DNA from: Gammaproteobacteria bacterium
GTDB taxonomy: Bacteria; Pseudomonadota; Gammaproteobacteria; Ga0077554; Ga007554
Reading direction: 5' to 3'
Length of the DNA stretch: 64,000 bases
Assembly: GCA_033717875.1 (NCBI GenBank)
Contig: JADDKJ010000002.1
Location: 67,280 to 131,279 of the forward strand
The position numbers and the translations under genes were made by a program. How positions within the stretch are numbered: the first letter of the stretch is position 1; every line of letters starts with the position of its first letter. The notes beneath the pieces were generated by a model. The model was not told the DNA's origin and made no database searches. It saw only the letters and a program-made list of their open reading frames with translations. Positions 43,069 to 57,667 of this stretch are shown here, in pieces.

Positions 43069-43413
43069 TTTTCGTCCTCTTTTGCGCCATGCAATGCAAT
43101 AGATACCCGCGCCAACGCCGCAGGGTGTGCCGCGCGCACCTGCCTAATTTAGCGGCGCGATCAAGAAAAACCTGTGGAATTCTTGAGCCTTTTCTTGAAA
43201 CTCCGCACCCATAATTTTTAAATCATTTAAAAACAAAGACATAAAAAATACACCACCGCTCCGCGAAAACAACATAAAAACCCGCTAAAGCTTCACCGCC
43301 CACCCGCCGATAACCTAGACGAAGGTATGAGTCCTTCAGGATTTGTACAAATCTTTCATGAAGCGAGACGGCAGGAGCTATCTCCAGACGCTCAATTACT
43401 AAATGAGGAGATA

Positions 43414-44412
43414 ATGCATATGCGCAAGGCAATCAAAATCATCAGCTCTGCCGGTTCCGCCGCGCTCCTTCTTGCGGGAACGGCGATGGCCGCCCCGCCG
43501 ACGGGAGTAAGCTTCGACAATTGGGAAATCAGTGGCGGTAATGTCGATCTCATCGGCGCTGGCACTGGCAGCCCCTGCCCCGCCGGCTACACCTGCCAGG
43601 AACTCGCCAAGGGCACGGGCTTCCTGCAACAACAGATCACGGAAACCGCATCAGGCAAGAAATACTTCTGGACGGTGATCTCCGAAGGCGCCGACGGCGC
43701 CGCGAACCTGGCGGGCAGACCATTCGCCAGCGAGGATTTCGTTCAACTGGGAACGGGTGGCAGCAGCACACCTGGCCTGTACGCCAATCAGAGGATATCG
43801 GACGGCGCCGTTTCCCCCATCGGCACCGCCCAAGCCGCCGTGACCAATGGATTTTCGACCTCCACCCAGATCTCCACCGGATGGGCCGTCAATAACGTCG
43901 CCAACAGCACCGAAACGGTCATCAATCTTAATGTGTCCGATGCCGGCGTGGCCGCCGCCAACGACGAGTTCCTGTCGGCCTTCAATGTCAGCAGCGCCAC
44001 CCCCGCCGGCGGCGGCGCCAATGTGGTCAGCGCCCTGACCATCGACCAGGTGGCCTGGATCGGCGACACCACCGCCGCCGCGGCGCCCAGTGACAGACAG
44101 TACTTCTACACCAAGCTGGTCGCCTCCACCGCCGCTTCGCCCGTGGGCGGATTCACCTTTACACCGGGCGGCGCGAGCGCCGTAACGGTGCAAGGAACAC
44201 CGATCGATTGGGCTTTGGGCGACAAGATCCAGGTCGTCTGGGTAGGCCAGACCATCGGCGGCCTGGGCAGCTTCGGCGCCGAGAACCTGACCCAGGTAAC
44301 CGGAACGACTTTGGGAACGGTCAGCTCGTCCTCGACCACCGCCACAGGCCCCTGGGATTGGGCCGCCGGCGGAACATTGGCCACGCAATTTGGAACCGCG
44401 CCGACGTTCTGA
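43414..44412 (+). CDS. Secreted Gly/Ala/Thr-rich hypothetical protein
   Basis: Signal peptide 'MRKAIKIISSAGSAALLLAGTAMAAP' with SD 'gaggag' upstream. No family was recognised. Confidence 0.45.
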   Translation: MHMRKAIKIISSAGSAALLLAGTAMAAPPTGVSFDNWEISGGNVDLIGAGTGSPCPAGYTCQELAKGTGFLQQQITETASGKKYFWTVISEGADGAANLAGRPFASEDFVQLGTGGSSTPGLYANQRISDGAVSPIGTAQAAVTNGFSTSTQISTGWAVNNVANSTETVINLNVSDAGVAAANDEFLSAFNVSSATPAGGGANVVSALTIDQVAWIGDTTAAAAPSDRQYFYTKLVASTAASPVGGFTFTPGGASAVTVQGTPIDWALGDKIQVVWVGQTIGGLGSFGAENLTQVTGTTLGTVSSSSTTATGPWDWAAGGTLATQFGTAPTF

Positions 44413-44587: not shown

Positions 44588-45547
44588 TTACCCGCCATAA
44601 AACGTTTTCTCTCCAGCCGGTCGCGTCTTGAAACGACGATGCACCCATAGATACTGTTCGGGAATACGGCGAATCTGTTCTTCGAAGAGGGCGTTGATGC
44701 GGGCGGCGTCGTGGCCGGCATCTTCGCTGGGGAAATTTTCCAGGGCGGGGGCAAGGGCGATGCGGTAACCCGCATCGCCCGGCAGCCGCTCGGGAAATAC
44801 CGGGATGACCGGCGCGCCGCTCAGCCGCGACAGCTCGGCGGTCGCGGTCATGGTGGCAGCGGGGATGCCGAAAAAGGGGACAAACGTGCTGTGCTTGCCT
44901 GCATAATTCTGATCGGGCGAGTACCACACCGGCTTGTTGTCCTTGAGCACACGCAGCATGGCGCGGATGTTGCCATGGGGTATCACGGGCGCGTGCCGCT
45001 GCCGGGCGCGGCGCATGACTTCGTCGAAAAGCGGATTCTTGTGCGGGCGGTAGGTCGCGCGCAGCGGTATGTGCATGGATAGCAACGTCGTGCCGATCTC
45101 CACGGTGGTGAAGTGGGCCATCAGCAGGATCGCGCCCCGGCCTTTCTTCAGCGCCTCGTCCAGGTGTTCGAGTCCTTCCATTCTTGCCAAGCCGCGCAGC
45201 CGGGCAGGAGGGGTCCACCAGCACAGCATGGTCTCCATGAGACTCATGCCCAGCGACTGGAAATGTCTTTTCAGCAAATAGCGGCGCTGCGGCTCGGTCA
45301 GATCTGGAAAGCACAACGCGAGATTGACCGTGGCGACGCGCCGCCGGTGCCCCGGCAGGATTCCGAGAACATGCCCCAGCACGCGGCCGATACGCATCAG
45401 CCAGGCATAGGGCAAGCGGGCGATGCACCACGAGGCGCCTATTCCGGCCCAGGTTGGCCAATAGCGGGGGGAGATGAAACGGCTGAGGAGCGCTGAAGTA
45501 TCGGTCACAATGGTTGAAGCTTGTCTATAGCCGGCACATTCTACCAC
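44588..45547 (-). CDS. Lipid A biosynthesis lauroyl/myristoyl acyltransferase family protein (LpxL/HtrB-like); start uncertain
   Basis: 'LMAHFTTVEIG' (HX4E acyltransferase motif) and the overall LpxL-like pattern. Confidence 0.65.
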   Translation of the reverse strand: MVECAGYRQASTIVTDTSALLSRFISPRYWPTWAGIGASWCIARLPYAWLMRIGRVLGHVLGILPGHRRRVATVNLALCFPDLTEPQRRYLLKRHFQSLGMSLMETMLCWWTPPARLRGLARMEGLEHLDEALKKGRGAILLMAHFTTVEIGTTLLSMHIPLRATYRPHKNPLFDEVMRRARQRHAPVIPHGNIRAMLRVLKDNKPVWYSPDQNYAGKHSTFVPFFGIPAATMTATAELSRLSGAPVIPVFPERLPGDAGYRIALAPALENFPSEDAGHDAARINALFEEQIRRIPEQYLWVHRRFKTRPAGEKTFYGG

Positions 45548-46185
45548 GCAGGCGGCAGTTTCTCGTTGACCGTGATGGTTTTACCCTCGATATGAATGTA
45601 TCCACCCGTCACCAGATCACGCAGAATGCGCCCCACCATCTCGCGCGAAGCGCCGACGCGGTTGGCGATCTCCTGATGGGTGATCCCGCTTTCAATGACC
45701 ATCTTGCCCTCGCGCGGCTGGGCGAGACTCAGCAACAGCTTGGCCACGCGGCCATAGACATCCATCAGCGCCAGGCTTTTCACGTTGTCGGTGAGCAGAC
45801 GCAGCCGCCGGCACAGGCCCTTGATCAAGACCAGGGCGACATCCGGGTGATCGGCCAGATATTGCCGGAAATCGCTCTTTGAAATCACCTGGAAAGATGA
45901 TTTCTCCAAAGTCATTACCGACGCCGAACGCGGCTGGTCATCGACCAGGGCCAGCTCGCCGAAGTATTCACCCGGCCCATGGAAATTGAGAATGATCTCC
46001 TTGCCCTCCTCATCCTGGAGAAAGACCTTCACCCGTCCCTCCAGAATCACATAAAGCGAATCACTCTGATCGCCTTCGGTGATGACAATGGTATTCTTGG
46101 GAACAACCTTCCTGACGGCGCGCTCCAGCAACGGGCGCAGCGTCTCTTCGCTCAATCCTTTAAACAGAGAGATGTTTGCCAACAT
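45541..46185 (-). CDS. crp: Crp/Vfr-like cAMP receptor transcriptional regulator
   Basis: cNMP-binding 'YFGELALVDDQPRSASV' and DNA-recognition helix 'REMVGRILRDL', close to CRP 'RETVGRILKML'. It lacks the FNR N-terminal Cys cluster. Confidence 0.75.
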   Translation of the reverse strand: MLANISLFKGLSEETLRPLLERAVRKVVPKNTIVITEGDQSDSLYVILEGRVKVFLQDEEGKEIILNFHGPGEYFGELALVDDQPRSASVMTLEKSSFQVISKSDFRQYLADHPDVALVLIKGLCRRLRLLTDNVKSLALMDVYGRVAKLLLSLAQPREGKMVIESGITHQEIANRVGASREMVGRILRDLVTGGYIHIEGKTITVNEKLPPAW

Positions 46186-46282
46186 GGGCGATCACCAGAG
46201 CATGAATCAGAAGACATACATTTTATCCCGGCCGGCTTTTAATTACACTCATGGACATCGCGACGGGATTTCGTAGCACACC

Positions 46283-48529
46283 ATGAAAACGAGGCGACTG
46301 GCCAAAGCCGGAATACTGGGCATGCTGACAGCCACGTTGGGCGTGGCGATCAGCCTGACACCCTTCGGCGCGATGCTGGAAGAGAACATTGGCCTGGACG
46401 CCCTGTTTGCCTGGCGCGGCGCCGCCACACCACCCGCCGAGATGGTAGTAATCACCATCGACAAAGCTTCCTCCGACCAGTTCGGATTGCCCAATAATCC
46501 GGCCAAGTGGCCGCGCGCGCATCACGCCCGCCTCATCGACAACCTAGCCGGGCAGGGCGCGCGCGTCGTCGCCTTCGACATCCTGTTCGCTGAACCGCGC
46601 GAAGCCGCGGGCGACCAGGCCCTCGCCAGAGCCATGGGCGCGGCGCGCAACGTGGTATTGGTCGAAGCGCTCAAAAGCGAGGCGGTCACGACAGGCGGCA
46701 CGTCCATTCGCAACGGCGGCGATGCCGCACTGGAACGGCTCGTTCCTTCGTTGCCGCTGTTCACCGACAACGCGCTGGCCAGCGCGCCTTTCCCCCTGCC
46801 CAAGGTGCCCGTCAGAGTCAGCCGCTTCTGGACCTTCAAGGCAGGCGCGGGAGAAACGCCGACATTACCGGCCGTCGCCTTGCAGCTTTATGCGCTGCCC
46901 GTGTATGACGCATTCCACGCCCTCATCGCGCGCGCCGCCCCCTCCCACGCCGCGCGCCTGCCGTCGGATCAGGCGGAGGCCTTGCGCACCGGCGTCGTAC
47001 CTCTCGCCCAGACGCTGCGCGCCCTATTCACCCGCGACCCATCGCTGGCGGAAGAGATGCGCCAGATACTGGACAGCCAGCGTCATCCCCAAGCAAACCT
47101 GCTGCGCGCACTGATCAACCTTTATTCCGGCGTTGATTATCCTTACCTGAACTTCTATGGCCCGCCCCATACCATCTCCACCCTGTCTTATCACGAGGCA
47201 TTACAACTAGCGGAACAGCCCCGGCCGCATTTCAAGGACAAGGTGGTTTTCGTCGGCTTTTCAGAACACCTGCAACCGGAACAGAAAGACGGTTTTTATA
47301 CCGTATTCTCACAAGAAGACAACGGTCTCGATGTCAGCGGCGTGGAAATCGCCGCCACAGCCTTCGCCAATCTTCTGGAAACCCGGCCGGTGCGGCCTGC
47401 CAGTCCCATGCTATATCTCGCCATTCTGCTGGGTTGGGGCTTGCTACTCGGCGTAGGGTGCCGGCTGCTTCCGATTGCCATCGCCCTTTCCGGCAGCGCG
47501 GTTTCGATCATCGCTTATGCCGCGTTCGCCGCTCATCAATTCGAAACAACGGCGCTGTGGCTGCCGCTGGTCATTCCGCTTTTGATCCAGGCGCCGTTCG
47601 CGCTGGCCGGCGCGACATTATGGCGTTATATCGACACCCATCGGGAACGGCGCGTCATCCACACCGCATTCGGCCATTACCTTCCCTCCACCGTCGTCGA
47701 TGAAATCGCCAAGGGCACAGGCAACATCGCGCCCGAAGGGCGTTTGGTGCATGGCGTATGCCTCTGCACCGATGCGGCGCAATACACCACGCTTGCGGAA
47801 ATGCTCGACCCCGCGCGCCTGCAAACCCTGATGAACGACTATTACAAGACGATTTTCACGCCGGTGCGCGAACATGGCGGCATCATTTCCGACGTTGTCG
47901 GCGATGCCATGCTGGCGCTCTGGACCGATCCCGCCGCCAACATCGAATCGCGGCGGCAAGCTTGCCGGGCGGCGCTGGATCTTGCGCAAGCCACCGACCG
48001 GTTCAACAACGATTTGGGCCATCCGCCACTGCCCACGCGCATCGGTTTGCACAGCGGCGACGTCATGCTGGGCAACATTGGCGCGGTGGATCACTTCGAA
48101 TACCGCGCGGTGGGCGACATCGTGAACACCGCCACACGCATCCAGACGCTCAACAAGCAGATTGGAACAAAAATATTAGTATCGAACGATATTCTTAAAG
48201 ATATCGACGCATTTTTAGTGCGGAAACTGGGAATTTTTCCCCTTGTGGGAAAATCCCAGCCCGTCGCCATTTGTGAACTGCTCTGCCGCATCGAAGACGC
48301 TACGGAATCGCAACGGCAAATTTGCGGCATCTTCGACGCGGGACTCGCCGCCTTCAGGGAGCAGCGCTGGCGCGAGGCAGCGGAGAGCTTCAGCGCTGTG
48401 CTACGCCTCGATGAACAGGATGGTCCCGCGCGCTTCTATCTCGCACTGTGCGACCGCGATCGTCACCGCCGCCGCTCCGATCCCATGCACGGCATTTTTC
48501 CCGCCGATATTTCAGAAAAAAGCGATTGA
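46283..48529 (+). CDS. CHASE2 sensor fused to a class III adenylate/guanylate cyclase (CyaB-like)
   Basis: N-terminal TM, a periplasmic CHASE2 region, three or four TM helices, then the cyclase catalytic domain 'LCTDAAQYTTLAEML...GDAMLALW...IGLHSGDVMLGNIGA'. Confidence 0.85.
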   Translation: MKTRRLAKAGILGMLTATLGVAISLTPFGAMLEENIGLDALFAWRGAATPPAEMVVITIDKASSDQFGLPNNPAKWPRAHHARLIDNLAGQGARVVAFDILFAEPREAAGDQALARAMGAARNVVLVEALKSEAVTTGGTSIRNGGDAALERLVPSLPLFTDNALASAPFPLPKVPVRVSRFWTFKAGAGETPTLPAVALQLYALPVYDAFHALIARAAPSHAARLPSDQAEALRTGVVPLAQTLRALFTRDPSLAEEMRQILDSQRHPQANLLRALINLYSGVDYPYLNFYGPPHTISTLSYHEALQLAEQPRPHFKDKVVFVGFSEHLQPEQKDGFYTVFSQEDNGLDVSGVEIAATAFANLLETRPVRPASPMLYLAILLGWGLLLGVGCRLLPIAIALSGSAVSIIAYAAFAAHQFETTALWLPLVIPLLIQAPFALAGATLWRYIDTHRERRVIHTAFGHYLPSTVVDEIAKGTGNIAPEGRLVHGVCLCTDAAQYTTLAEMLDPARLQTLMNDYYKTIFTPVREHGGIISDVVGDAMLALWTDPAANIESRRQACRAALDLAQATDRFNNDLGHPPLPTRIGLHSGDVMLGNIGAVDHFEYRAVGDIVNTATRIQTLNKQIGTKILVSNDILKDIDAFLVRKLGIFPLVGKSQPVAICELLCRIEDATESQRQICGIFDAGLAAFREQRWREAAESFSAVLRLDEQDGPARFYLALCDRDRHRRRSDPMHGIFPADISEKSD

Positions 48530-48605
48530 CAAAAGTTTATTTTATGTAACACACTCCGCGCTCAAGTAAAAAAACGACAAACAACAGCAGGGATGAAGAA
48601 AACGA

Positions 48606-51600
48606 ATGCAACAAGCTGTCGCGCGGAAAAACAAGCAGCGCCTGATACTGCCCGTGGCATTTCTGGCGATGATCTCGCCCACCCCCGGTCACACCGCACC
48701 GGATGAGTGCGCGGATTGGGTGGCGAGGGCCGTATCAATGGAAGGAAACGTGGAGGGACACAGCGGCATGGATCCCGTCTGGCAGCCCGTCAGACCCAAT
48801 CAAGTTTTCTGCCCCGGCAGCGCCATACGTACCGGGCCGCGCAGCCGCGCCGCCCTGCTACTGCGCAACCAGAGCGTGCTGCGCATCGACCAGCGTTCCG
48901 CCATCACCTTCCCCGCCGCCGAGAGCGAAACACCCTTCTGGCTCAGAATGCTCAACGGCGCGGTGAACGTCATCACCCGCACACCGAAAAAATTCCAGAT
49001 CGACACTCCTTTCGTCAATGCCGCGGTGGACGGCACGGAATTCCTCGTCGCCACCACGGAAAACGAAGCCACCGTCTCGGTATTCGAGGGTCAGGTCAGC
49101 GCCACCAACCCCCAAGGACAACGGGTGCTGAAAAGCGGCGAATCGGCCAGCGCCAGCCCCGGCCAGGCGCCCGTCCCGCACATCCTCGCTCGTCCGCGCG
49201 ACGCCGTGCAGTGGGCGCTCTATTACCCGCCGGTGCTGACATTCCGCCGCGAAGATTTCCGCGAAGGCGATGAAAACGCCTGGCAAGGGCGCGTGCGCCG
49301 ATCCATCGCCGCTTATCGGGAGAGCCGCCTGTCCGATGCGCTGGAGATCATCGCCCAGACGCCGCAAGACAACCCCGGCGCATCCTTCTTCACCTGGCGC
49401 GCCGCATTACTGCTCGAAACCGGGCGCAGCGACGAGGCCGGCACCGATCTTCAGACCGCCCTCGGTCTCGACCCGAACCACGGACCCGCTTATGCCCAGC
49501 AAGCGATCATCGCCGTCACGCAGAACCGGCGCAATGAAGCGCTCGAACAAGCAAGACGCGCCACCACTCTGACACCGCAAAACGCCGCTTCCTGGATCGC
49601 CCTCTCCTACGCCGAACAGGCCAGCTTCAACCTCCAGGCCGCGCTCGACGCTGCACAGCAAGCCATTGAGAAAGAACCCGGCAACGCCCTGGCCTGGGCG
49701 CGGCTCGCCGAACTGCGGTTGTCACTGGCCGACTTGGACGGCGCGCTGGCCGCCGCCGAAAAAGCCGCGGCGCTCGACCCGAACCTGGCCCGCACCCACA
49801 GCGTGCTCGGCTTCGTCCGGCTCGCCCAGATCAATACCCGCGACGCACGCCTATCGTTCGAACACGCCATCGCCCTCGTCCCCTCCGACCCCCTCCCCCG
49901 CCTCGGCCTGGGCCTCGCCAAAATCCGCAACGGCGAACTCGCCGCCGGCCGCGAAGACATCGAAATCGCCACCGCCCTTGACCCCAACAACGCGCTGGTG
50001 CGCAGCTACATGGGCAAGGCCTATTACGAAGAAAAACGCGCCAGCCTGGCGGCAAGCCAATTCGACATCGCCAAGGCGCTCGACCCCAATGATCCTACGC
50101 CGTGGTTCTATGACGCCATTCTCAAGCAGAGCGTCAACCGGCCTGTCGAGGCATTGCAGGATTTGCAAAAATCCATCGAGTTGAATGACAACCGCGCGGT
50201 TTACCGTTCACGCCTACTGCTCGATAGCGACGCAGCCGCACGTAGCGCCAGCCAAGCACGGATATACAGTGACCTTGGTTTTCAACAACTGGCCATGGTC
50301 GAGGGCTGGAAATCTCTCAACACCGACCCCGCCAACCACTCTGCGCACAGGTTCCTCGCCGACTCCTATGCCGGCATACCACGCCACGAAATCGCCCGTG
50401 TCAGCGAGCTGCTGCAAGCGCAACTGCTGCAACCGCTCAACATCAACCCGATTCAGCCCCAGTTGGCGGAGAGCAATCTTGGAATACTGGATGGAGCGGG
50501 GCCATCGCGAGCAGGGTTTAATGAATTTAACCCGCTTTTTGCACGTGACCGGGTTGGGTTCCAGGTAAATGGGATAGGGGGCGGAAATAACACGCTAGGA
50601 AATGATCTCGTCATTTCAGGAACGCAGGGAAAACTATCCTACAGCATAGGGCAGTTCCACTACCAGACAGATGGATTCCGGAAAAACAACGATATCAAGC
50701 AAGACCTCTACACCCTGTTTGTACAGGGCGCCTTGTCCCATAAAACCAGCGTACAGGCCGAATTCAGGTCATCGGACAGAGAGAACGGCGACTTGGCTCT
50801 GCGCTTTTCTCCGGATAACTTTTCAGCAGCGCTACGGGAGAATACCAATACCGAGACATCAAGACTCGGATTCCGTCATGCTTTCTCACCATCGTCGGAT
50901 TTGATCGGGTCAATCATTTTCCAGAATTCCGATTCAGACAATCATGATACAAATCCATTCCTGTCCATCACTTCCGCCAGAAAGGATCAGGGTTATATCG
51001 GTGAAATACAGCACCTGTTCCGTTCGATGCGATTCAATCTTGTCAGCGGCATCGGGCATTACTCCCTGGAAAGAAAAACGGTGATCACAACGGACTTTGG
51101 CATACCTTTCATTCCCAAAGCGACGTCATCCAAGACAGGTGATGTCGAGAGAGGCAATGCTTATTTCTATTCACGGACAAATGTCTTGGAAAATATGACA
51201 TTTGCGCTAGGCATAAGCGCCGACAAATATCAGGGAACATTTATGGATAAAAACCAGATAAATCCCAAACTCGGACTGATCTGGAATATCTCGCCGGCGA
51301 CCACTGTGCGTGCCGCTGCTTTCAGAGTCCTGAAAAGAGACCTGATCACCAACCAAACCCTTGAACCAACACAAGTCGCCGGCTTTAATCAATTTTTTGA
51401 TGATATTAACGGCACGGATTCCAAACGCTACGGCGTAGCCCTCGACCAACAGTTAACACACTCTTCATATAGTGGGATAGAGCTTTCCAGGAGGGATATG
51501 AGCGTCCCTTACAACAACCCCTTTTCAGGAGAAACTCTCACTGCGAAATGGAAAGAGAACATTGGCCGCTTTTATTTATATTGGTCGCCACAGCCCTGGC

Positions 51601-51989
51601 TTTCCAGCAGTATGGAATATAACTTTGAACGGATCGAAAGAGATGCGAATTTTACAACGGGAAATTTATTGGACCTAAAGACACACAAGCTGCCTTTGGC
51701 CATCAATCTGTTTTCCCCATCCGGGCTCACTATGCAATTCAAGGCAACCTACTTCAATCAAGCGGGGGATTTTTTTGATCCCGCATCCTCACTCGTCACA
51801 TACGGGAGCGATCAATTCTGGCTTGCGAACTTCAATGCAAGCTATCGGCTACCCAAGCGTTATGGAATCATTTCGGCAGGAGTCAACAATTTATTCAACA
51901 AACGATTCAGCTTTCAGGATACCGATCCGGCGACCCCACGCGTGAGTCCGCAACGATTGATCTTTCTCAAGTTCACACTCACGTTTTAG
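48606..51989 (+). CDS. Secreted FecR-domain / TPR-repeat protein with a ~450-aa C-terminal beta-barrel-like domain (outer-membrane type)
   Basis: A signal peptide is followed by a FecR block 'LRIDQRSAITFP...VDGTEFLVAT', then at least 8 TPR-like repeats. A C-terminal region rich in alternating aromatic/Gly strands ends 'LIFLKFTLTF' (terminal Phe). Confidence 0.7.
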   Translation: MQQAVARKNKQRLILPVAFLAMISPTPGHTAPDECADWVARAVSMEGNVEGHSGMDPVWQPVRPNQVFCPGSAIRTGPRSRAALLLRNQSVLRIDQRSAITFPAAESETPFWLRMLNGAVNVITRTPKKFQIDTPFVNAAVDGTEFLVATTENEATVSVFEGQVSATNPQGQRVLKSGESASASPGQAPVPHILARPRDAVQWALYYPPVLTFRREDFREGDENAWQGRVRRSIAAYRESRLSDALEIIAQTPQDNPGASFFTWRAALLLETGRSDEAGTDLQTALGLDPNHGPAYAQQAIIAVTQNRRNEALEQARRATTLTPQNAASWIALSYAEQASFNLQAALDAAQQAIEKEPGNALAWARLAELRLSLADLDGALAAAEKAAALDPNLARTHSVLGFVRLAQINTRDARLSFEHAIALVPSDPLPRLGLGLAKIRNGELAAGREDIEIATALDPNNALVRSYMGKAYYEEKRASLAASQFDIAKALDPNDPTPWFYDAILKQSVNRPVEALQDLQKSIELNDNRAVYRSRLLLDSDAAARSASQARIYSDLGFQQLAMVEGWKSLNTDPANHSAHRFLADSYAGIPRHEIARVSELLQAQLLQPLNINPIQPQLAESNLGILDGAGPSRAGFNEFNPLFARDRVGFQVNGIGGGNNTLGNDLVISGTQGKLSYSIGQFHYQTDGFRKNNDIKQDLYTLFVQGALSHKTSVQAEFRSSDRENGDLALRFSPDNFSAALRENTNTETSRLGFRHAFSPSSDLIGSIIFQNSDSDNHDTNPFLSITSARKDQGYIGEIQHLFRSMRFNLVSGIGHYSLERKTVITTDFGIPFIPKATSSKTGDVERGNAYFYSRTNVLENMTFALGISADKYQGTFMDKNQINPKLGLIWNISPATTVRAAAFRVLKRDLITNQTLEPTQVAGFNQFFDDINGTDSKRYGVALDQQLTHSSYSGIELSRRDMSVPYNNPFSGETLTAKWKENIGRFYLYWSPQPWLSSSMEYNFERIERDANFTTGNLLDLKTHKLPLAINLFSPSGLTMQFKATYFNQAGDFFDPASSLVTYGSDQFWLANFNASYRLPKRYGIISAGVNNLFNKRFSFQDTDPATPRVSPQRLIFLKFTLTF

Positions 51990-52037
51990 GTTTTCAGACA
52001 GCCCCCGAGTCAACCAGCCGCAAATGGAGACACCACA

Positions 52038-52385
52038 ATGATGAAGAACGCCAAAAACACCGCCTTTTCACTTGCCCTGAGCCTGGCGATTCTACCGCTG
52101 GGCGCATGCGCGGTCATGAAAGACAAAAAAGACGGGGACGACACGGGCAAAGAACCATCAACGTCGTCCCTGCTACCTTTCAGTATTGTTTTCGACACCA
52201 AAGGTAATCCGTTTGTTCAGGACGAAAAAGGAAGGCTGATTTCCCCTGAACAAGTCAAATTCCCAATAAAAGACGTAAAAGAAATCGAAAATCTTCATGC
52301 CATTTCTGTCATGGGTGTTATTGGCTCACACTATTACATCGTAATAATCGGCGGTAATGCTTATAAGATAATGTTGCCGCACTGA
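52038..52385 (+). CDS. Small lipoprotein, hypothetical
   Basis: Lipobox 'ILPLGAC' after an n-region 'MMKNAKNTAFSLALSLA'. Total length 115 aa. Confidence 0.6.
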   Translation: MMKNAKNTAFSLALSLAILPLGACAVMKDKKDGDDTGKEPSTSSLLPFSIVFDTKGNPFVQDEKGRLISPEQVKFPIKDVKEIENLHAISVMGVIGSHYYIVIIGGNAYKIMLPH

Positions 52386-52446
52386 ACCGGAAATCTGCGA
52401 GACAGCTGCACAGAAATAAAGGGCGGGTTAGCATTTTATGCGAACC

Positions 52447-52547
52447 CGCCAAGCGTGCGAAGCACACAACTCGTTTCAAAGGAGTGCCGTTGGCACGGCT
52501 GGCGGGTGACGGTGCTGGAAAGATCGCCTAACCCACCCTCCATATTT
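52447..52547 (+). repeat. REP-3 / MITE-like element, copy 2
   Basis: It aligns over about 100 bp with 35531-35634. Confidence 0.6.
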
Positions 52548-54717
52548 TCTCCACCCCCCTCCCAGTCGCAGGTGACGGCTCAACACCCAATAACGCCGAA
52601 AACATCGTGCGGCAGCGCTGATACACTCCCAGCGCTTCGACGCGGCGGCCCTGCTGCTGGTAGCAGGCGATGAGGCGCTGATATAGCAGTTCCGCCAGCG
52701 GATCGGTCTCCAGCCCCTTGCGGTAGCAAGTGATGGCCTGTTCCCAGGCTCCGGCATGCTCGAACTGTCTGCCGAGCTGCTCGACATGACGCAGAAATTT
52801 GCTGCGCAGGCGTTCGCGCAACGGCAGAATCCATGGCTCCCCGGACTCCTTGGCGAGAAAATGTCCCTGATAGAGATCCAGGAACTTTTCGGCGTGGGAG
52901 GTTGAATCCATGTCTTGTGCTTTGCCGGCCAGCCGCTCGAACGCCCAGACATCCACCCAGCAGCGGGACGCATCCAGCGTGATGCAGCCATCGCGCACGA
53001 TGACGGCCTTTTCATCGCCGAGGAACTGGCGCAGACGGTGGAGGGTGGTGCGGAATGCCTGGTGTGCGGCATCACCTTCGGCATCGGGCCAGAGGGCGTC
53101 CATCAACTGGACTTCGTTCACATCGCGCCCGCCGAAAGCAATCAGCGCTTTCAACAGAGAGAGCGGCTTGCCTTGAGCGGCGCCGCGGGCGTGTAGCGTC
53201 TTGCCTTCCCTGAGCACCGAGAACCGCCCCAAGGTGTAAATCTTCACCGGCCAGGGCCAGTGGTCGCACTCCAGCGGTGGGCAGGGCGGGCGCAAACCAT
53301 ACTGGCGAATGATGTCGCGGATATATTCGACTTCGATGCCGTTATCCAGCGCCTTCTTGCACAGCACGGCCATCATGCAGGGACGCCAGCCGGGAATGAT
53401 CATATAGCCTTGCGCCCGGCTCAACGCGAAGGTCTTGCGCAGCAGGACGACGCTGCGCCCGTCGCGCTGCTGAATACAGCAGAACATCGCCTCCAGGATC
53501 AGCGCCATATATTCGAGCCAGCCGCTCTTCATGCCGCGAGCAAGATCGCGCAACTCCTTGACGTGAACGGAAGCCTCACGCCGCCCGCCATACTCGAGCA
53601 GGGCCTGGGCAAGCACGCCATGGCACAACGCCTGCTGAAAGGGTGCATCGACTTCAACCGCGGATGCCAGCGCGGCCTGTGCCTGCTCGACGGCCAGGCG
53701 GAAGTCGCCACGGCAGAGCGACTGCCAGGCTGACAGAAAGCTATGGACGGACACGTCCAGGCGGCGATCACTATCCAGCATTGCGCTCATGTTGCCAAGA
53801 AAACCGCTCGCGGCCTCGAGATTACCCGTGCTCAATGCGCCGCACACGCCTTGGGCATACAAATCGAAATCCATGCCCTGTATACCGGCGACCCGCATCG
53901 TCTCCAACCCTTGGGTCACCGCCTGCGAGCAAGCTTCAGGATCGTTGGCAAACCAGCCAAGCGCCGCCTCGCTTGCGCACCACTCGGCCTGAATCGCCAC
54001 AGAGGCTTTTTCAACGTCGGGCTTCATCGCTTCCATGATGTTACCTGCCTTCGCGAATTCACCTTTCCACACATAGTAGCGCGCCAGGCGACTTCCCAAT
54101 ACAAGCTGATGATCAAAGCCCAGGCCGCACGACAGCAACCACAACGCGCTCATCTCCCATTTCCTGGTATCTCGATGATGTGGCTGGTGGAGCGTCAGAA
54201 CACGCAGCATGGCCGCAGTGACACTGGCCTCGACTTCGTGAGAGGGAAAAGCGGGGTGAATACGCACCAGATCATCCAGAACGGCAACCCATGTCGCCAG
54301 CGGCGCATAATCCTTGCGTGCAGCCACGCAGGCATCCACGATACCGGCCCAGGACAGGAATATTCCCGAGACATCCTGCTTCCATTTGAACAGGGCGAAA
54401 GCCTCTTCCAGATCGGCGCGGCTCCGCGCAGGATCGCTGGACAGATGACACATGCCCCGCCAGTAGAGCAGCCACGGCGTTTCTGCCAAAATCGCCCGAG
54501 GAACGCGGCTCAAGCGACCCTCCAGCGTCTGGTGCCGCCCTTGGGAAATCAGCAACGGAGCCTGTTTGATGATGACCTGTGTTACCGTATCCCAGTCATT
54601 GATCGGCGAAGGCAGGGATTTGGTCTTCTCCGTAACATTGATTCTTGCAACGACAGGCGCATGCTCGACGCCCTCAAGCATGGGGCGACGGGAAATTTTG
54701 AGCAGAGGAGCATCCAT
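52528..54717 (-). CDS. Large transcriptional regulator: about 490-aa N-terminal helical region (MalT-like start, no P-loop) plus C-terminal SARP-type winged-helix and BTAD domain
   Basis: The C-terminal 'YTLGRFSVLREGKTL...GKPLSLLKALIAFGGRDVNEVQLMDALWPD...FRTTLHRLRQFLG' matches the SARP/OmpR-type wHTH. 'LYQRLIACYQQQGRRVEALGVYQRCRTMF' matches the BTAD. The N-terminus 'PLLKISRRPML' resembles the MalT N-terminus. Confidence 0.65.
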   Translation of the reverse strand: MDAPLLKISRRPMLEGVEHAPVVARINVTEKTKSLPSPINDWDTVTQVIIKQAPLLISQGRHQTLEGRLSRVPRAILAETPWLLYWRGMCHLSSDPARSRADLEEAFALFKWKQDVSGIFLSWAGIVDACVAARKDYAPLATWVAVLDDLVRIHPAFPSHEVEASVTAAMLRVLTLHQPHHRDTRKWEMSALWLLSCGLGFDHQLVLGSRLARYYVWKGEFAKAGNIMEAMKPDVEKASVAIQAEWCASEAALGWFANDPEACSQAVTQGLETMRVAGIQGMDFDLYAQGVCGALSTGNLEAASGFLGNMSAMLDSDRRLDVSVHSFLSAWQSLCRGDFRLAVEQAQAALASAVEVDAPFQQALCHGVLAQALLEYGGRREASVHVKELRDLARGMKSGWLEYMALILEAMFCCIQQRDGRSVVLLRKTFALSRAQGYMIIPGWRPCMMAVLCKKALDNGIEVEYIRDIIRQYGLRPPCPPLECDHWPWPVKIYTLGRFSVLREGKTLHARGAAQGKPLSLLKALIAFGGRDVNEVQLMDALWPDAEGDAAHQAFRTTLHRLRQFLGDEKAVIVRDGCITLDASRCWVDVWAFERLAGKAQDMDSTSHAEKFLDLYQGHFLAKESGEPWILPLRERLRSKFLRHVEQLGRQFEHAGAWEQAITCYRKGLETDPLAELLYQRLIACYQQQGRRVEALGVYQRCRTMFSALLGVEPSPATGRGVEKIWRVG

Positions 54718-55189: not shown

Positions 55190-57667
55190 TCAGCGGCGAA
55201 AGTTTGCGTCTGTTGCCCACGGCGACTCCAGAAGCCAGCGCTCGAATTCCTCGATGGGCATGGGACGACTGATGAAATAACCCTGGGCCACATCACAGTT
55301 CAGCCCCTCCAGCAAATCATAGGCGCTTTTGTCTTCAACGCCTTCCGCAACGACCCTGAGGCCGATATTGTGCGCCAGATCGATCGTGGAGCGAACGATC
55401 ACCGCGTCGCTCTCATCCACGGCCATGCCCATGACGAATGACTTGTCGATTTTCAGCTCATGGACAGGCAATTGCTTGAGATAGGCCAGCGAGGAATAAC
55501 CCGTACCGAAATCGTCGATGGACAACCCCACGCCCATCTCGCGCAAACCGCCAAGCACTGTCAGGGCGCGGGCCGGATCCGCCATCATGGCGGTTTCGGT
55601 GATTTCGAAACAGAGCCGGGACGACTGTGTGCGCATGTCCTGCAAAAGCGATGCAAGGACTTTGGGGAATTGGCTGTCCAGTAGATTGCGCGCCGACAGA
55701 TTAACGGCGATGGTCAGCGTCAAACCTGCATCGTGCCACTTCCGGCATTGTTCGACGGCTGCCCTCACCACCCACTCCGTGAGAGGATTGATCAAACCGA
55801 CTTGCTCCGCCAGGGGGATGAATCCATCGGGGAACATCAAGCCATAACGGGGATGACGCCATCTGACCAGCGCCTCGGCGCCGATCACCCGGCCGGTCGA
55901 CAGGGAAATCTTGGGCTGATAATAAAGAATGAGGTCATTGTGCTCGATAGCGGCGCGCAATTCTCCCATGAGAGAGAGATTGCGCAGGCTGTGCTGGTCC
56001 TTGGTCGGGTCGTAAATCGCATACCCCAGATTGCCGCGCTTGGCGACATACATCGCCACATCGGCGTGCCGCATCAGAGCGCCTTCGTCGCGGCCGTGAT
56101 CGGGGAACATCGCGATGCCAAAACTCGCCCCGACATGCAACGAATGCTCCTCGATAACAAACGGCTCCTCCAGAACGGCCGCGAGTTTCTGCGCAATGGC
56201 GATCGCCTGATCGAGCTCCACCGCCGGCAATACCATGGCGAACTCGTCCCCCCCCAGCCGTGCGATGGTATCCGACTCGCGCAGTGCGCCGCTCAGCCTC
56301 TGCGCCACCTGCTGCAAAATGAGATCGCCGTTCTGATGGCCGAGGGTATCGTTGATTTCCTTGAAGCGGTCAAGATCGGTCAGCACCAGGGCCAGTTGCG
56401 CTCCGTCGCGGCTGGCGCGCAGTATGGCCTGGCTGACCCGGTCCGAGAACAATGTGCGATTCGGCAAAGCAGTCAGCGCGTCGTGCAACGCTTGATACTC
56501 CAGCGCCGCCATCTGCTCTTTGCGTTCGGTGATATCACTGACAATGCCGATGAAGCGGCGCTGCCCGCCCAGCCGCATCTCGCTCACCGCGATGTCGATG
56601 GGGAACGTCGAACCATTCTTGCGTATGCCGATGACTTCACGCCGGGCGCCGATGATGCGCGCCTTGCCGGTATGCACGTAATTCTCGAGATATTCGTCGT
56701 GCATGCTCCGGTAAGGTTCGGGCATGAGCTTCTTGACGTTCTGGCCGACCAACTCGCTGGAAGCGTAACCGAACATCTTCTCGGCGGCCGGGTTAAGCGA
56801 TTCGATAACGCCATGCTCATCAATGGTGATGATGGTATCCACCACATTATCCATCACCGCCCGGATGCGGGTCTCGTAAGCCTGCAAATCATCCTGCATG
56901 CGGTTGAAAACATCCGCCACATCACCCAGCTCATCCTTGCGCAGCGCGAGCAGCCGGGCATTGCGGTCTCCCTGACCGGCCCGGACGATGGCGCTACGCA
57001 AGCTGCCGATCGGGCGCAGCACACTCATGCGCAGCGAGCTCCACAGCGCCACGCCAAGAAACATCACCAGCAGACTTCCGGCCCCCCAGAGGTAATAGCG
57101 CATTTCCCGGATGCGCGCCTCGCCGCTCTCGGTGGAAACCATCAGCTTCAAAACGCCGCGCAGGGGCTCATTTTCGTATCCATGACACGCCAGGCACTCG
57201 GTTTTCGCGGCTATCGGCGCCAGCACCGTCATTGCCTCGGCATCGCGAGCGATCACAAACTGACCCTGCAATGCTTTCTGAAAAATGTCTGGAGGGGGTG
57301 GGATGGGATCGCGGGGCAGCGTGGCCGCACGCTGGAAGCGCGGCACGTTCAGATAACGATTGACCTGCTCCACCGTGGCGAGATCGGTAAACGCCTCCCG
57401 GCCGTCGCGGCGCAATACCTCGATGTCAATGATACCGGCCGTCCCGTGCATGCGATCCAGCCACTCGCGGGCGAGGGTACCCTGGCCGTTCAGCATCAAT
57501 GTTTGCAGGCTGGCGAGCAAGGTCTTGGCGTGGGTTTGCGCCTGTTCTTTTTCCTCCTCGTAAATCGCCGCGGTCAATTGCCGTTGCAACCAGAGACCGG
57601 CGACGACCATCAGGCAAAGCAGCACGCCGGAAATAACCACCGCAAGACGAGTGCCGAGACTCCTCAT
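55190..57667 (-). CDS. Membrane sensor HAMP-PAS-GGDEF-EAL protein whose periplasmic domain carries a CXXCH heme-c motif
   Basis: TM1, then a periplasmic ~160 aa ending '...AKTECLACHGYE', TM2, HAMP, PAS 'IDEHGVIESLNPAAEKMFGY', GGDEF 'RLGGDEF', and EAL 'FEITETAMM...DDFGTGYSSLAYL'. Confidence 0.85.
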   Translation of the reverse strand: MRSLGTRLAVVISGVLLCLMVVAGLWLQRQLTAAIYEEEKEQAQTHAKTLLASLQTLMLNGQGTLAREWLDRMHGTAGIIDIEVLRRDGREAFTDLATVEQVNRYLNVPRFQRAATLPRDPIPPPPDIFQKALQGQFVIARDAEAMTVLAPIAAKTECLACHGYENEPLRGVLKLMVSTESGEARIREMRYYLWGAGSLLVMFLGVALWSSLRMSVLRPIGSLRSAIVRAGQGDRNARLLALRKDELGDVADVFNRMQDDLQAYETRIRAVMDNVVDTIITIDEHGVIESLNPAAEKMFGYASSELVGQNVKKLMPEPYRSMHDEYLENYVHTGKARIIGARREVIGIRKNGSTFPIDIAVSEMRLGGQRRFIGIVSDITERKEQMAALEYQALHDALTALPNRTLFSDRVSQAILRASRDGAQLALVLTDLDRFKEINDTLGHQNGDLILQQVAQRLSGALRESDTIARLGGDEFAMVLPAVELDQAIAIAQKLAAVLEEPFVIEEHSLHVGASFGIAMFPDHGRDEGALMRHADVAMYVAKRGNLGYAIYDPTKDQHSLRNLSLMGELRAAIEHNDLILYYQPKISLSTGRVIGAEALVRWRHPRYGLMFPDGFIPLAEQVGLINPLTEWVVRAAVEQCRKWHDAGLTLTIAVNLSARNLLDSQFPKVLASLLQDMRTQSSRLCFEITETAMMADPARALTVLGGLREMGVGLSIDDFGTGYSSLAYLKQLPVHELKIDKSFVMGMAVDESDAVIVRSTIDLAHNIGLRVVAEGVEDKSAYDLLEGLNCDVAQGYFISRPMPIEEFERWLLESPWATDANFRR

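Follow-up and report, generated by a model that had tools for sequence, protein, structure and literature searches.

A probable NsrA-type outer-membrane signalling protein encoded next to a CHASE2 cyclase in a gammaproteobacterial genome

Introduction

According to PMC7529298 and PMC13001267, which cite its primary study (Garnerone et al. 2018, J Bacteriol 200:e00019-18), NsrA (SMb20775) of Sinorhizobium meliloti is the protein on which the CHASE2 cyclases CyaK and CyaD1/D2 depend to perceive their signal, and Clr is the cAMP-dependent regulator in the pathway. The pathway is activated by exogenous extracts and by purified uL2 in an nsrA-dependent manner (PMC7529298). The barrel portion of NsrA corresponds to residues 600-1200, its loops are reported to contain 57 acidic residues, and the electrostatic recognition of uL2 was proposed (PMC7529298). 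As to CHASE2 itself, what it senses is given as unknown in the domain description quoted in PMC5192318, and the LysM-FecR partners of CHASE2 kinases are peptidoglycan-binding (PMC5192318). That CHASE2 sensors may receive their input from a partner in the outer membrane has so far been hinted at experimentally only by NsrA.

Here we describe a gene at positions 48606-51989 of a 64,000-nucleotide stretch of DNA from a Gammaproteobacteria bacterium; the whole stretch that was analysed is referred to as the window. Our analysis suggests that this gene probably encodes an outer-membrane signal receptor or co-receptor of the NsrA type, which forms a trans-envelope module with the CHASE2 cyclase encoded upstream of it.

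Results

The open reading frame 48606..51989 (+ strand, 1127 aa) was found exactly as a sequence-only reading had given it, and its product was identified as an NsrA-like predicted outer-membrane protein by the combination of ORF analysis, Pfam, AlphaFold2, Foldseek and homology. Pfam and AlphaFold2 also agreed with that reading in placing a FecR domain, a TPR array and a C-terminal outer-membrane barrel in one polypeptide. The N-terminus, MQQAVARKNKQRLILPVAFLAMISPTPGHTA, was judged by eye to be a putative signal peptide (residues 1-33, 48606..48704), with a basic n-region and the hydrophobic stretch LILPVAFLAMI; the conservation of this segment was just 0.35 and its pLDDT was low. It is followed by a FecR-type beta-sandwich of predicted periplasmic location (residues 40-190, 48723..49175), which was recognized by Pfam (PF04773, residues 73-164, E=1.1e-19, 71 bits versus a cutoff of 24), in the structure model, and in the alignment with the FecR domain of NsrA. 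As the FecR part starts around residue 40, right behind the signal-like segment, the protein was rejected as a candidate FecR-type anti-sigma factor, which would have a cytoplasmic anti-sigma domain, one transmembrane helix and a gene for a partner ECF sigma; no sigma-70 r2/r4 gene was found among the neighbours of the receptor gene in the window and in the loci of its relatives.

The TPR-like helical array (residues 215-588, 49248..50369) was matched by many Pfam TPR families at about residues 237-531, and comprises around ten TPR-like helix pairs in the model. The matches to the XrtA/PEP-CTERM TPR lipoprotein PrsT (TIGR02917, 83 bits versus a cutoff of 312) and to PilW, MamA and similar NCBIfam families (far under their cutoffs) covered TPRs only, and these assignments were rejected. 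Between the array and the barrel lies a linker (residues 589-648, 50370..50549; IPRHEIARVSELLQAQLLQP...NEFNPLF). The remaining part (residues 649-1127, 50550..51986) is a 22-stranded barrel of the TonB-dependent transporter (TBDT) type that is devoid of a plug, as judged by DSSP, Foldseek and Pfam. The terminal Phe pointed out previously is indeed present: the protein ends with LIFLKFTLTF, and the family consensus with RFTLAF.

The full-length AlphaFold2 model, based on an 81-sequence alignment (pLDDT 81.3), contained the beta-sandwich (residues 40-190, pLDDT about 80-85), paired helices (215-608), a low-confidence linker (609-648), and an all-beta part with 22 strands (649-1126). The C-terminal region modelled alone again had 22 strands in DSSP (pLDDT 86.5, pTM 0.83), and the pLDDT of residues 609-648 was below 50 in both models. 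The soluble beta-sandwich weighed previously as an alternative to a C-terminal membrane barrel was thus not seen. When the barrel was compared with known structures by Foldseek, each of the best 50 PDB matches was a TonB-dependent transporter, with E values as low as 1.9e-19 and a TMq of 0.6-0.7; the transducers FpvA and FecA were among the best ones, and none of these 50 was BcsC, PgaA or Slam. The searches of PDB by sequence gave no match at E<=10 for the C-terminal 568 aa, and only chance matches (E>1) for the N-terminal 215 aa.

The fold of the barrel, with FpvA and FecA as close structural matches, raises the question of whether the protein is a variant of a TonB-dependent transporter or transducer that imports a nutrient and has FecR fused in cis. 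Many homologs carry precomputed PF00593 matches and are called 'TonB-dependent receptor' in the source databases, as would suit such a protein. However, the window protein itself had no PF00593 match at E<=0.01 in Pfam. Moreover, the Plug domain (PF07715) was found neither by Pfam nor in the two models, in which about 40 unstructured residues precede strand 1, and the lack of a plug means that there is no TonB box context. As genes for ECF sigma factors, TonB/ExbBD and periplasmic-binding/ABC proteins were also absent among the conserved neighbours, we regard a nutrient importer as very improbable.

To compare the protein with NsrA directly, we located NsrA on pSymB of S. meliloti by tblastn and annotation. 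It is a protein of 1190 aa, encoded directly upstream of cyaK (L007:6845-10417), and has a FecR domain at residues 66-160 (Pfam E=3e-15), TPRs at 378-587 and a C-terminal barrel. The BLASTP matches between the two proteins were colinear (E=7e-17 over FecR and TPR, E=1e-5 over the barrel), and in hhalign the 81-sequence profile aligned with NsrA over 989 columns (64-1136 versus 28-1177; prob 99.8%, E=1.4e-27). Judging by this full-length sequence homology, the product of 48606-51989 is a distant, NsrA-type relative of NsrA. Neither is the layout as unusual as the sequence-only reading had it: it is that of NsrA too, and is a known, though little-studied, layout of a large and tightly conserved family. 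Full-length homologs, about 1100-1150 aa long and 50-60% identical, numbered more than 100 among the matches listed; at least 554 loci were found in one-genome-per-species collections, and the module of linker and barrel formed 1227 clusters at 50% identity.

The gene preceding 48606-51989 on the same strand, at a distance of 76 bp, encodes a predicted inner-membrane protein of 748 aa composed of a CHASE2 sensor and a CyaK-like class III nucleotide cyclase (46283..48529, +), as indicated by Pfam (CHASE2 E=5e-35, Guanylate_cyc E=2.6e-12) and by BLASTP against S. meliloti CyaK (E=1e-26). This immediately upstream gene had been missed previously, and we consider it the key to function. A CHASE2-cyclase gene occupied the same position, directly upstream and on the same strand, in all 5 contigs of different phyla, and its ortholog was directly upstream in 43 of the 70 genome loci that were informative. 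A tblastn match to the CHASE2-cyclase, its CHASE2 part or its cyclase part was present within 6 kb in 59 of the 70, and in the other 11 no CHASE2 gene was detected within 6 kb by tblastn. Pfam scans of five non-adjacent partners revealed CHASE2 in each of them, in three cases joined to a cyclase and in two to a SpoIIE phosphatase. The linkage to CHASE2 is thus kept whatever the output domain, which suggests that it is CHASE2, rather than the cyclase domain, that the receptor gene is coupled to.

The cyclase of the window retained the metal-binding Asp, Asn and Arg, but its purine-specifying Lys is replaced by Asp537, and 49 of 57 cyclase orthologs carried Asp, Asn or Glu at this adenine-specifying position. 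The messenger produced by a cyclase lacking the canonical Lys may therefore differ from cAMP. Divergently from the cyclase gene, a transcription factor of the Crp family is encoded (45541..46185, -; Pfam cNMP_binding E=1e-26, HTH_Crp_2 E=3e-13). The same arrangement was found in the close relatives L001 and L003, and a divergent Crp-family gene was also present in several other gammaproteobacterial loci. This regulator, which is analogous to Clr, probably reads the cyclic nucleotide. The scan of the region 45400-52700 for promoters and terminators gave no excess of sites over shuffles, and hence no evidence on operon boundaries.

The most conserved segment of the whole protein is the linker 589-648 (0.86 overall, and 0.97 for residues 591-610), a related version of which is visible in NsrA in the hhalign alignment; this segment may be an element that sits in the lumen or binds a partner. 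The TPR array had a mean column conservation of 0.78, with peaks at 421-575 and values of 0.78-0.92 in its C-terminal half. Conservation that is strongest in the predicted periplasmic TPR half and in the linker matches what would be expected of a conserved protein–protein relay. Of the 11 predicted external loops, 8 are only 3-9 residues long, the longer exceptions being the conserved loops L3, L7 and L11, and the predicted surface loops contain 12 acidic residues in total.

Such short loops, and the periplasmic location of the best-conserved parts, could also mean that the barrel merely anchors a FecR-TPR scaffold, which senses the state of the envelope and, in an RcsF-like manner, reports periplasmic or outer-membrane perturbations (of envelope width, peptidoglycan or LPS) to the CHASE2 cyclase. 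The LPS genes that adjoin the module in the window and in close relatives (lipid A acyltransferase, heptose pathway) fit this possibility, and so does the binding of peptidoglycan by the LysM-FecR partners of CHASE2 kinases (PMC5192318). However, the LPS-gene neighbourhood was not maintained in distant relatives, and the conservation of loops L2, L3, L7 and L11 (0.70-0.88) points to a functional site at the surface or in the lumen. Because, in addition, the S. meliloti pathway responds via nsrA to extracts and purified uL2 supplied from outside (PMC7529298), we consider a pure envelope-state sensor unlikely.

Downstream of the receptor gene, the sequence-only reading had noticed a lipoprotein gene, and the gene is there: it encodes a small predicted outer-membrane lipoprotein of 115 aa (52038..52385, +) with the lipobox LPLGAC (LGAC). 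Its product had no match in Pfam and NCBIfam, and its ortholog in L001 was 65% identical. When about 10,000 ORFs were searched with an iterative HMM, the small-protein family matched only ORFs that adjoin the receptor gene, and its members lie exclusively at the position immediately 3' of NsrA-like genes. The window lipoprotein failed E<=1e-3 in one of the two iteration runs, and it is placed in the family because BLAST connects it to L025, L066 and L076 and because its cluster matches the seed cluster in hhalign (prob 95.6%, E=1.1e-8). The C-terminal Cys-bracketed aromatic hairpin of the family is lost in the window copy. We found no published description of a small-protein family downstream of NsrA-like genes. 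The Cys-rich secreted proteins of about 270-300 aa encoded 3' of the receptor gene elsewhere showed no detectable relationship to this family (hhalign prob <=17%), except for those of L069 and L071, the C-termini of which match it. Within the module, the lipoprotein probably has the place of an accessory third component.

BcsC, PgaA and Slam, to which the protein had been likened before, likewise combine TPRs with a barrel at the C-terminus, and the small lipoprotein gene located 3' in the window, like the small-protein genes 3' in many relatives, could suggest a Slam-like translocon that brings its lipoprotein neighbour to the surface, if not a BcsC/PgaA-like polysaccharide porin. A plug-less 22-stranded barrel, as modelled, would offer a large lumen for either function. 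Yet the barrels of BcsC and PgaA have 16 strands and that of Slam (DUF560) has 14, contrary to the 22-stranded TBDT-type barrel found here, all the best 50 fold matches of which were TBDTs. The NCBIfam PgaA model scored 18 bits versus a cutoff of 367, over the TPRs only, and DUF560 was not detected by Pfam. Synthase, glycosyltransferase and DUF560 genes were absent from the conserved neighbourhood, in which the CHASE2 sensor, rather than any synthase or dedicated substrate lipoprotein, is the conserved partner. In the relatives, a lipobox-like motif near the N-terminus was present in just 10 of 72 downstream ORFs, and several of the 72 had no N-terminal hydrophobic stretch by eye. Finally, the homolog NsrA functions in signal perception (PMC7529298). 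The likeness to export porins and to Slam is therefore not supported, and a pore for export or translocation appears very improbable.

Two further genes were rejected as parts of the module. Only 2 of 80 loci had a homolog of the BTAD/SARP regulator gene (52528-54717, -) in the vicinity of the receptor gene. NsrA-like genes are followed by GGDEF-EAL genes in L044 and L055, but the likeness of the PAS-GGDEF-EAL gene of the window (55190-57667, -) to the latter is confined to the cytoplasmic domains.

Discussion

The relatedness to NsrA and the adjoining CHASE2 cyclase together make an envelope signal relay, and not an export pore, the most likely function of the protein encoded by 48606-51989. 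In such a relay, the plug-less 22-stranded barrel would serve as the outer-membrane anchor of the protein and display a few conserved loops, while FecR, the TPR array and the conserved linker would hang in the periplasm. We infer that signalling would proceed inwards: an event that takes place at the barrel or inside it would be passed to the periplasmic domains and, by physical contact of FecR/TPR with CHASE2, to the periplasmic CHASE2 part of the inner-membrane cyclase. The cyclase would then make a cyclic nucleotide, which the divergently encoded Crp-family regulator would read.

The identity to NsrA of about 22-25% and the reversed gene order speak against a reading of the NsrA type. In addition, with 12 acidic loop residues and short loops, the electrostatic recognition of uL2 in the manner of NsrA need not apply. 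More speculatively, and on balance unlikely in this full form, the module may be a device of three components instead of two, in which the plug-less, TBDT-derived barrel is gated or filled by its own linker or by the small downstream protein, the product of the cyclase is perhaps not cAMP, and the ligand in these free-living, mostly anaerobic lineages is a widely conserved molecule (compare uL2, as reported for NsrA).

An NsrA-type signalling function would move the annotation of the window from a speculative export porin to signalling. Given the size of the family, its coupling to CHASE2 with either a cyclase or a PP2C phosphatase, and the plug-less barrel, a general and testable hypothesis can be put forward, namely that the FecR-TPR-barrel protein is the input device of CHASE2 receptors, beyond a rhizobial curiosity.

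Compared with known systems, the protein shares with BcsC, PgaA and Slam the periplasmic TPR array that precedes a C-terminal outer-membrane barrel, but those families lack FecR, and in their operons one finds genes for synthases or for surface lipoproteins as substrates instead of CHASE2 sensors. As in FecA-FecR-FecI, a 22-stranded TBDT-type barrel and a periplasmic FecR would cooperate in passing a signal on from the outer membrane towards an inner-membrane protein. However, FecR of the window protein is fused to the barrel protein and not to an inner-membrane anti-sigma factor; plug, STN, anti-sigma domain and ECF sigma are lacking, and the output is a CHASE2 cyclase. A secreted FecR protein coupled to a CHASE2 sensor is also known from the operons of LysM-FecR and CHASE2 histidine kinase (Burkholderia 'BiofilmReg', P. 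aeruginosa PA4035-type), in which the FecR protein bears LysM in place of TPR and barrel, with a histidine kinase for output in Burkholderia (PMC5192318). In the CHASE2 cyclase cluster of Campylobacterota, too, the CHASE2 sensor has a secreted protein with a FecR domain as its genetic partner; the TPR and FecR outer-membrane parts of this cluster were described as separate genes (PMC9239204).

The differences from the NsrA system itself concern details of the module. In S. meliloti nsrA precedes the cyclase gene, whereas in the window the cyclase gene comes first; the Crp gene adjoins the module in the window, and a small lipoprotein gene, which has no counterpart beside nsrA-cyaK, lies downstream. 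The loops of the window protein are short and not acid-rich, CyaK has the adenine-specifying Lys that the window cyclase lacks, and the host of NsrA is a plant symbiont, contrary to the uncultured environmental gammaproteobacterium-like organism of the window, for which the closest genome relative was at 76%. Nevertheless, in both cases FecR, TPR and a C-terminal barrel are joined in one secreted protein of about 1100-1200 aa, the adjoining gene encodes a CHASE2 class III cyclase (homologous to CyaK), and the circuit includes a cNMP regulator of the Crp family.

Domain architecture and barrel type of the putative receptor

The 1127-aa receptor ORF (window 48606..51989, + strand) was confirmed to be real. 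In Pfam, residues 73–164 matched FecR (E=1.1e-19), residues about 237–531 matched a dozen TPR families, and the final ~560 residues had no match; in an NCBIfam scan all matches were sub-threshold and TPR-driven (PrsT, 83 bits vs 312; PgaA, 18 bits vs 367). An AlphaFold2 model based on 81 full-length homologs (pLDDT 81.3) comprised a beta-sandwich (residues 40–190), paired helices (215–608), a low-confidence linker (609–648), and an all-beta region (649–1126). Modelled separately, residues 600–1127 formed 22 strands (pLDDT 86.5, pTM 0.83) joined by long and very short connections by turns, as expected of an outer-membrane barrel with a periplasmic N-terminus. The last residue is Phe, and the family consensus C-terminus is RFTLAF. 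Thus, FecR, TPRs, and a C-terminal barrel do occur in one protein, as the sequence-only reading had proposed, and the C-terminal region was modelled as a 22-stranded barrel instead of a soluble sandwich. The G+C content of window 50001–52000, which covers the barrel-coding half and the following lipoprotein gene, is 0.497 vs about 0.59–0.62 on both sides.

In Foldseek searches against the PDB, the top 50 matches of both the full-length and the C-terminal model were all TonB-dependent transporters (for the latter, FhuE, FpvA, PqqU, FptA, BtuB, and FecA among others, with E down to 1.9e-19 and TM-scores of 0.6–0.7 on the query), and none was a BcsC, PgaA, or Slam structure. The barrel is of the wrong type for an export porin or Slam-like translocon, and the conserved gene neighbourhood does not match such a role either, which makes that proposal improbable. 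Many receptor homologs have precomputed matches to PF00593 (TonB_dep_Rec barrel), and some sources name them 'TonB-dependent receptor'. However, we consider it highly improbable that the receptor is a TonB-dependent transporter, as it lacks a conserved TonB/ECF context and a plug: Pfam found no plug domain, and in the models strand 1 follows an unstructured stretch of only about 40 residues. The plug-less barrel may be closed by the conserved linker, by its long conserved loops, or by a partner protein.

The periplasmic parts of the receptor are its most conserved ones, with values of 0.89–0.92 in the best 20-residue windows of the C-terminal TPRs and 0.97 in the linker 591–610, IPRHEIARVSELLQAQLLQP. 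The conserved parts of the barrel are the predicted external loops L2, L3, L7 (28 residues, 0.82), and L11, the remaining external loops having 3–9 residues each. A sensor of the envelope state that acts without an external ligand seems rather unlikely.

Distribution of the FecR–TPR–barrel architecture

A full-length search listed 120 proteins of 1070–1167 aa, all with FecR and TPR families and mostly 50–60% identical to the receptor (the closest three, 68–90%); their source names included Gammaproteobacteria, Tectomicrobia, Brocadiaceae, and others. Across GTDB species, each scanned as one genome, there were at least 554 receptor loci, almost all from MAGs, which among the matches listed represented Gammaproteobacteria, Desulfobacterota, Nitrospirota, Rokubacteria, Brocadia, and Spirochaetes. 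The linker and barrel together were found in 1227 50%-identity clusters (exhaustive HMMER search, E<=1e-30), most of them of 1050–1170 aa with this module at the C-terminus. The architecture, earlier described as unusual, is that of a large and uniform family, of which the window receptor is an ordinary instance.

Conserved linkage of the receptor to CHASE2 sensors

The receptor gene is preceded at 76 bp by a gene encoding a CHASE2 and class III cyclase protein (46283..48529, +; Pfam), from which a Crp-family cNMP-binding regulator gene (45541..46185, −) diverges. A CHASE2-cyclase gene was the immediate same-strand upstream neighbour in 5 contigs from different lineages. Among 70 genome loci with sufficient upstream sequence, it was directly upstream on the same strand in 43 and elsewhere within 6 kb in 5, while 8 had a downstream tblastn match to the cyclase part only. 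Three of these 8 were scanned with Pfam and all encoded CHASE2-cyclases; the one intervening ORF scanned had no Pfam domain. The CHASE2 part was matched without the cyclase in 3/70 loci, and both partners scanned were CHASE2 fused to a SpoIIE/PP2C phosphatase (L038:10304-12499, L063:7821-9965). In the other 11/70, tblastn found no CHASE2 or cyclase match within 6 kb; two such loci that were scanned carry a HAMP-PAS-GGDEF-EAL protein gene downstream (L044:10497-13139, L055:10139-12736). These counts, the CHASE2–SpoIIE cases included, suggest that what is conserved beside the receptor is the CHASE2 sensor domain, irrespective of the output domain. In the window, the CHASE2 cyclase, the receptor, and the small protein make up a conserved module next to the Crp regulator gene. 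Family size, barrel type, and the conserved CHASE2 neighbour leave the domain assignments of the sequence-only reading standing, but neither 'unusual' nor 'export porin'.

Several other genes were noted around the receptor genes. At one locus, a Glutaminase-STAS-cNMP_binding fusion, possibly a cyclic-nucleotide effector other than a Crp regulator, lies directly upstream of the NsrA-like gene (L027:3938-5896). The module is flanked by a lipid A acyltransferase gene (44588-45547, −) in the window and by heptose-pathway genes (SIS, HldE-like, epimerase) in the upstream regions of the close relatives L001 and L003; this LPS-gene neighbourhood is absent from distant relatives. The gene at 52528-54717 (−), convergent with the module, encodes a BTAD/SARP-type regulator of 729 aa that has a MalT-like TPR region; it is probably unrelated to the module, as homologs lie near the receptor gene in 2/80 loci only (L042, L071). 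An 825-aa PAS-GGDEF-EAL protein (55190-57667, −) resembles the GGDEF-EAL proteins beside other NsrA-like genes in its cytoplasmic domains only; a CxxCH motif (ECLACH) in the extracytoplasmic part at its N-terminus hints at a haem-c sensor. The 361-aa Gly/Thr/Ala-rich product of 43327-44412 (+) has a signal-like N-terminus and no Pfam or NCBIfam match.

The small downstream protein and the cyclase active site

The next ORF after the receptor gene (52038..52385, +) encodes a predicted 115-aa lipoprotein with the lipobox LPLGAC, in agreement with the sequence-only reading. Neither Pfam nor NCBIfam gave a match for it, and it shares 65% identity with its ortholog in the closest relative. An iterative HMM seeded with 12 downstream ORFs of other loci was run against the six-frame ORFs of all loci, about 10,000 in number, and recovered 28–30, all beside a receptor gene and nearly all immediately downstream. 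The family occurs in about 28–30/72 related loci; its members have 60–180 aa, some carrying a signal or lipobox and others neither. The window lipoprotein clusters with proteins of four other loci (L010, L025, L066, L076), and this cluster matched the seed cluster (hhalign 95.6%, E=1.1e-8). Most members share the C-terminal motif NPxCxW/YV..G..Y..IC[WY], both Cys of which are missing from the window copy. Only 10/72 downstream ORFs have a lipobox-like motif, which argues against a general Slam-like role in lipoprotein export; several lack an N-terminal hydrophobic stretch by eye. At other loci the same position is occupied by Cys-rich secreted proteins of 270–300 aa that show no detectable relation to this family, apart from the C-termini of those at L069 and L071.

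Both metal-binding Asp residues are kept in 57/57 cyclase orthologs (L008–L087), the transition-state Asn in 55/57, and Arg in 56/57. Class III adenylate cyclases have Lys, and guanylate cyclases Glu, four residues ahead of the second metal Asp. This purine-specifying position is Asp537 in the window cyclase and Asp, Asn, or Glu in 49/57 orthologs, whereas CyaK of S. meliloti keeps Lys. The product nucleotide is thus uncertain, and judging by this residue may be other than cAMP.

Comparison with the NsrA pathway

The literature on CHASE2 and FecR led us to the S. meliloti cAMP pathway. According to two reports (PMC7529298, PMC13001267), both citing Garnerone et al. 2018, CHASE2 cyclases functionally depend on NsrA, the pathway acts through the Crp-like Clr, its candidate signal is ribosomal protein uL2, and the NsrA barrel spans residues 600–1200. 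By tblastn and annotation we located nsrA on pSymB, directly upstream of cyaK, as a 1190-aa 'FecR domain-containing protein' with Pfam matches to FecR (66–160) and TPRs (378–587) and a weak C-terminal barrel match. BLASTP aligned the receptor colinearly with NsrA (E=7e-17 across FecR and TPRs, E=1e-5 across the barrel), and the 81-sequence receptor profile matched it over 989 columns (64–1136 onto 28–1177, probability 99.8%, E=1.4e-27); the window cyclase matched CyaK with E=1e-26.

The architecture, the homology to NsrA, and the conserved CHASE2 linkage are established by these data, which are best explained by a proposed trans-envelope relay of the NsrA type. The barrel would sit in the outer membrane and pass a signal to the periplasmic TPR/FecR parts, which would act, presumably by physical contact, on the CHASE2 domain that the inner-membrane cyclase has in the periplasm; the cyclic nucleotide made in response to a putative ligand would then act on the adjoining Crp-type regulator. 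Two further reports tie FecR-domain proteins to CHASE2 sensors; in one, LysM-FecR adjoins a CHASE2 histidine kinase in Burkholderia and P. aeruginosa (PMC5192318). The receptor family, large and barely studied, is relevant to where CHASE2 sensors get their input. Judged by sequence, the window gene adds a distant member to the known NsrA kind: like NsrA, it encodes FecR, TPRs, and a C-terminal barrel and adjoins a homologous CHASE2 cyclase gene. In contrast, there are altogether 12 acidic residues in its predicted external loops but a reported 57 in NsrA (PMC7529298), suggesting that its ligand may differ from that of NsrA.
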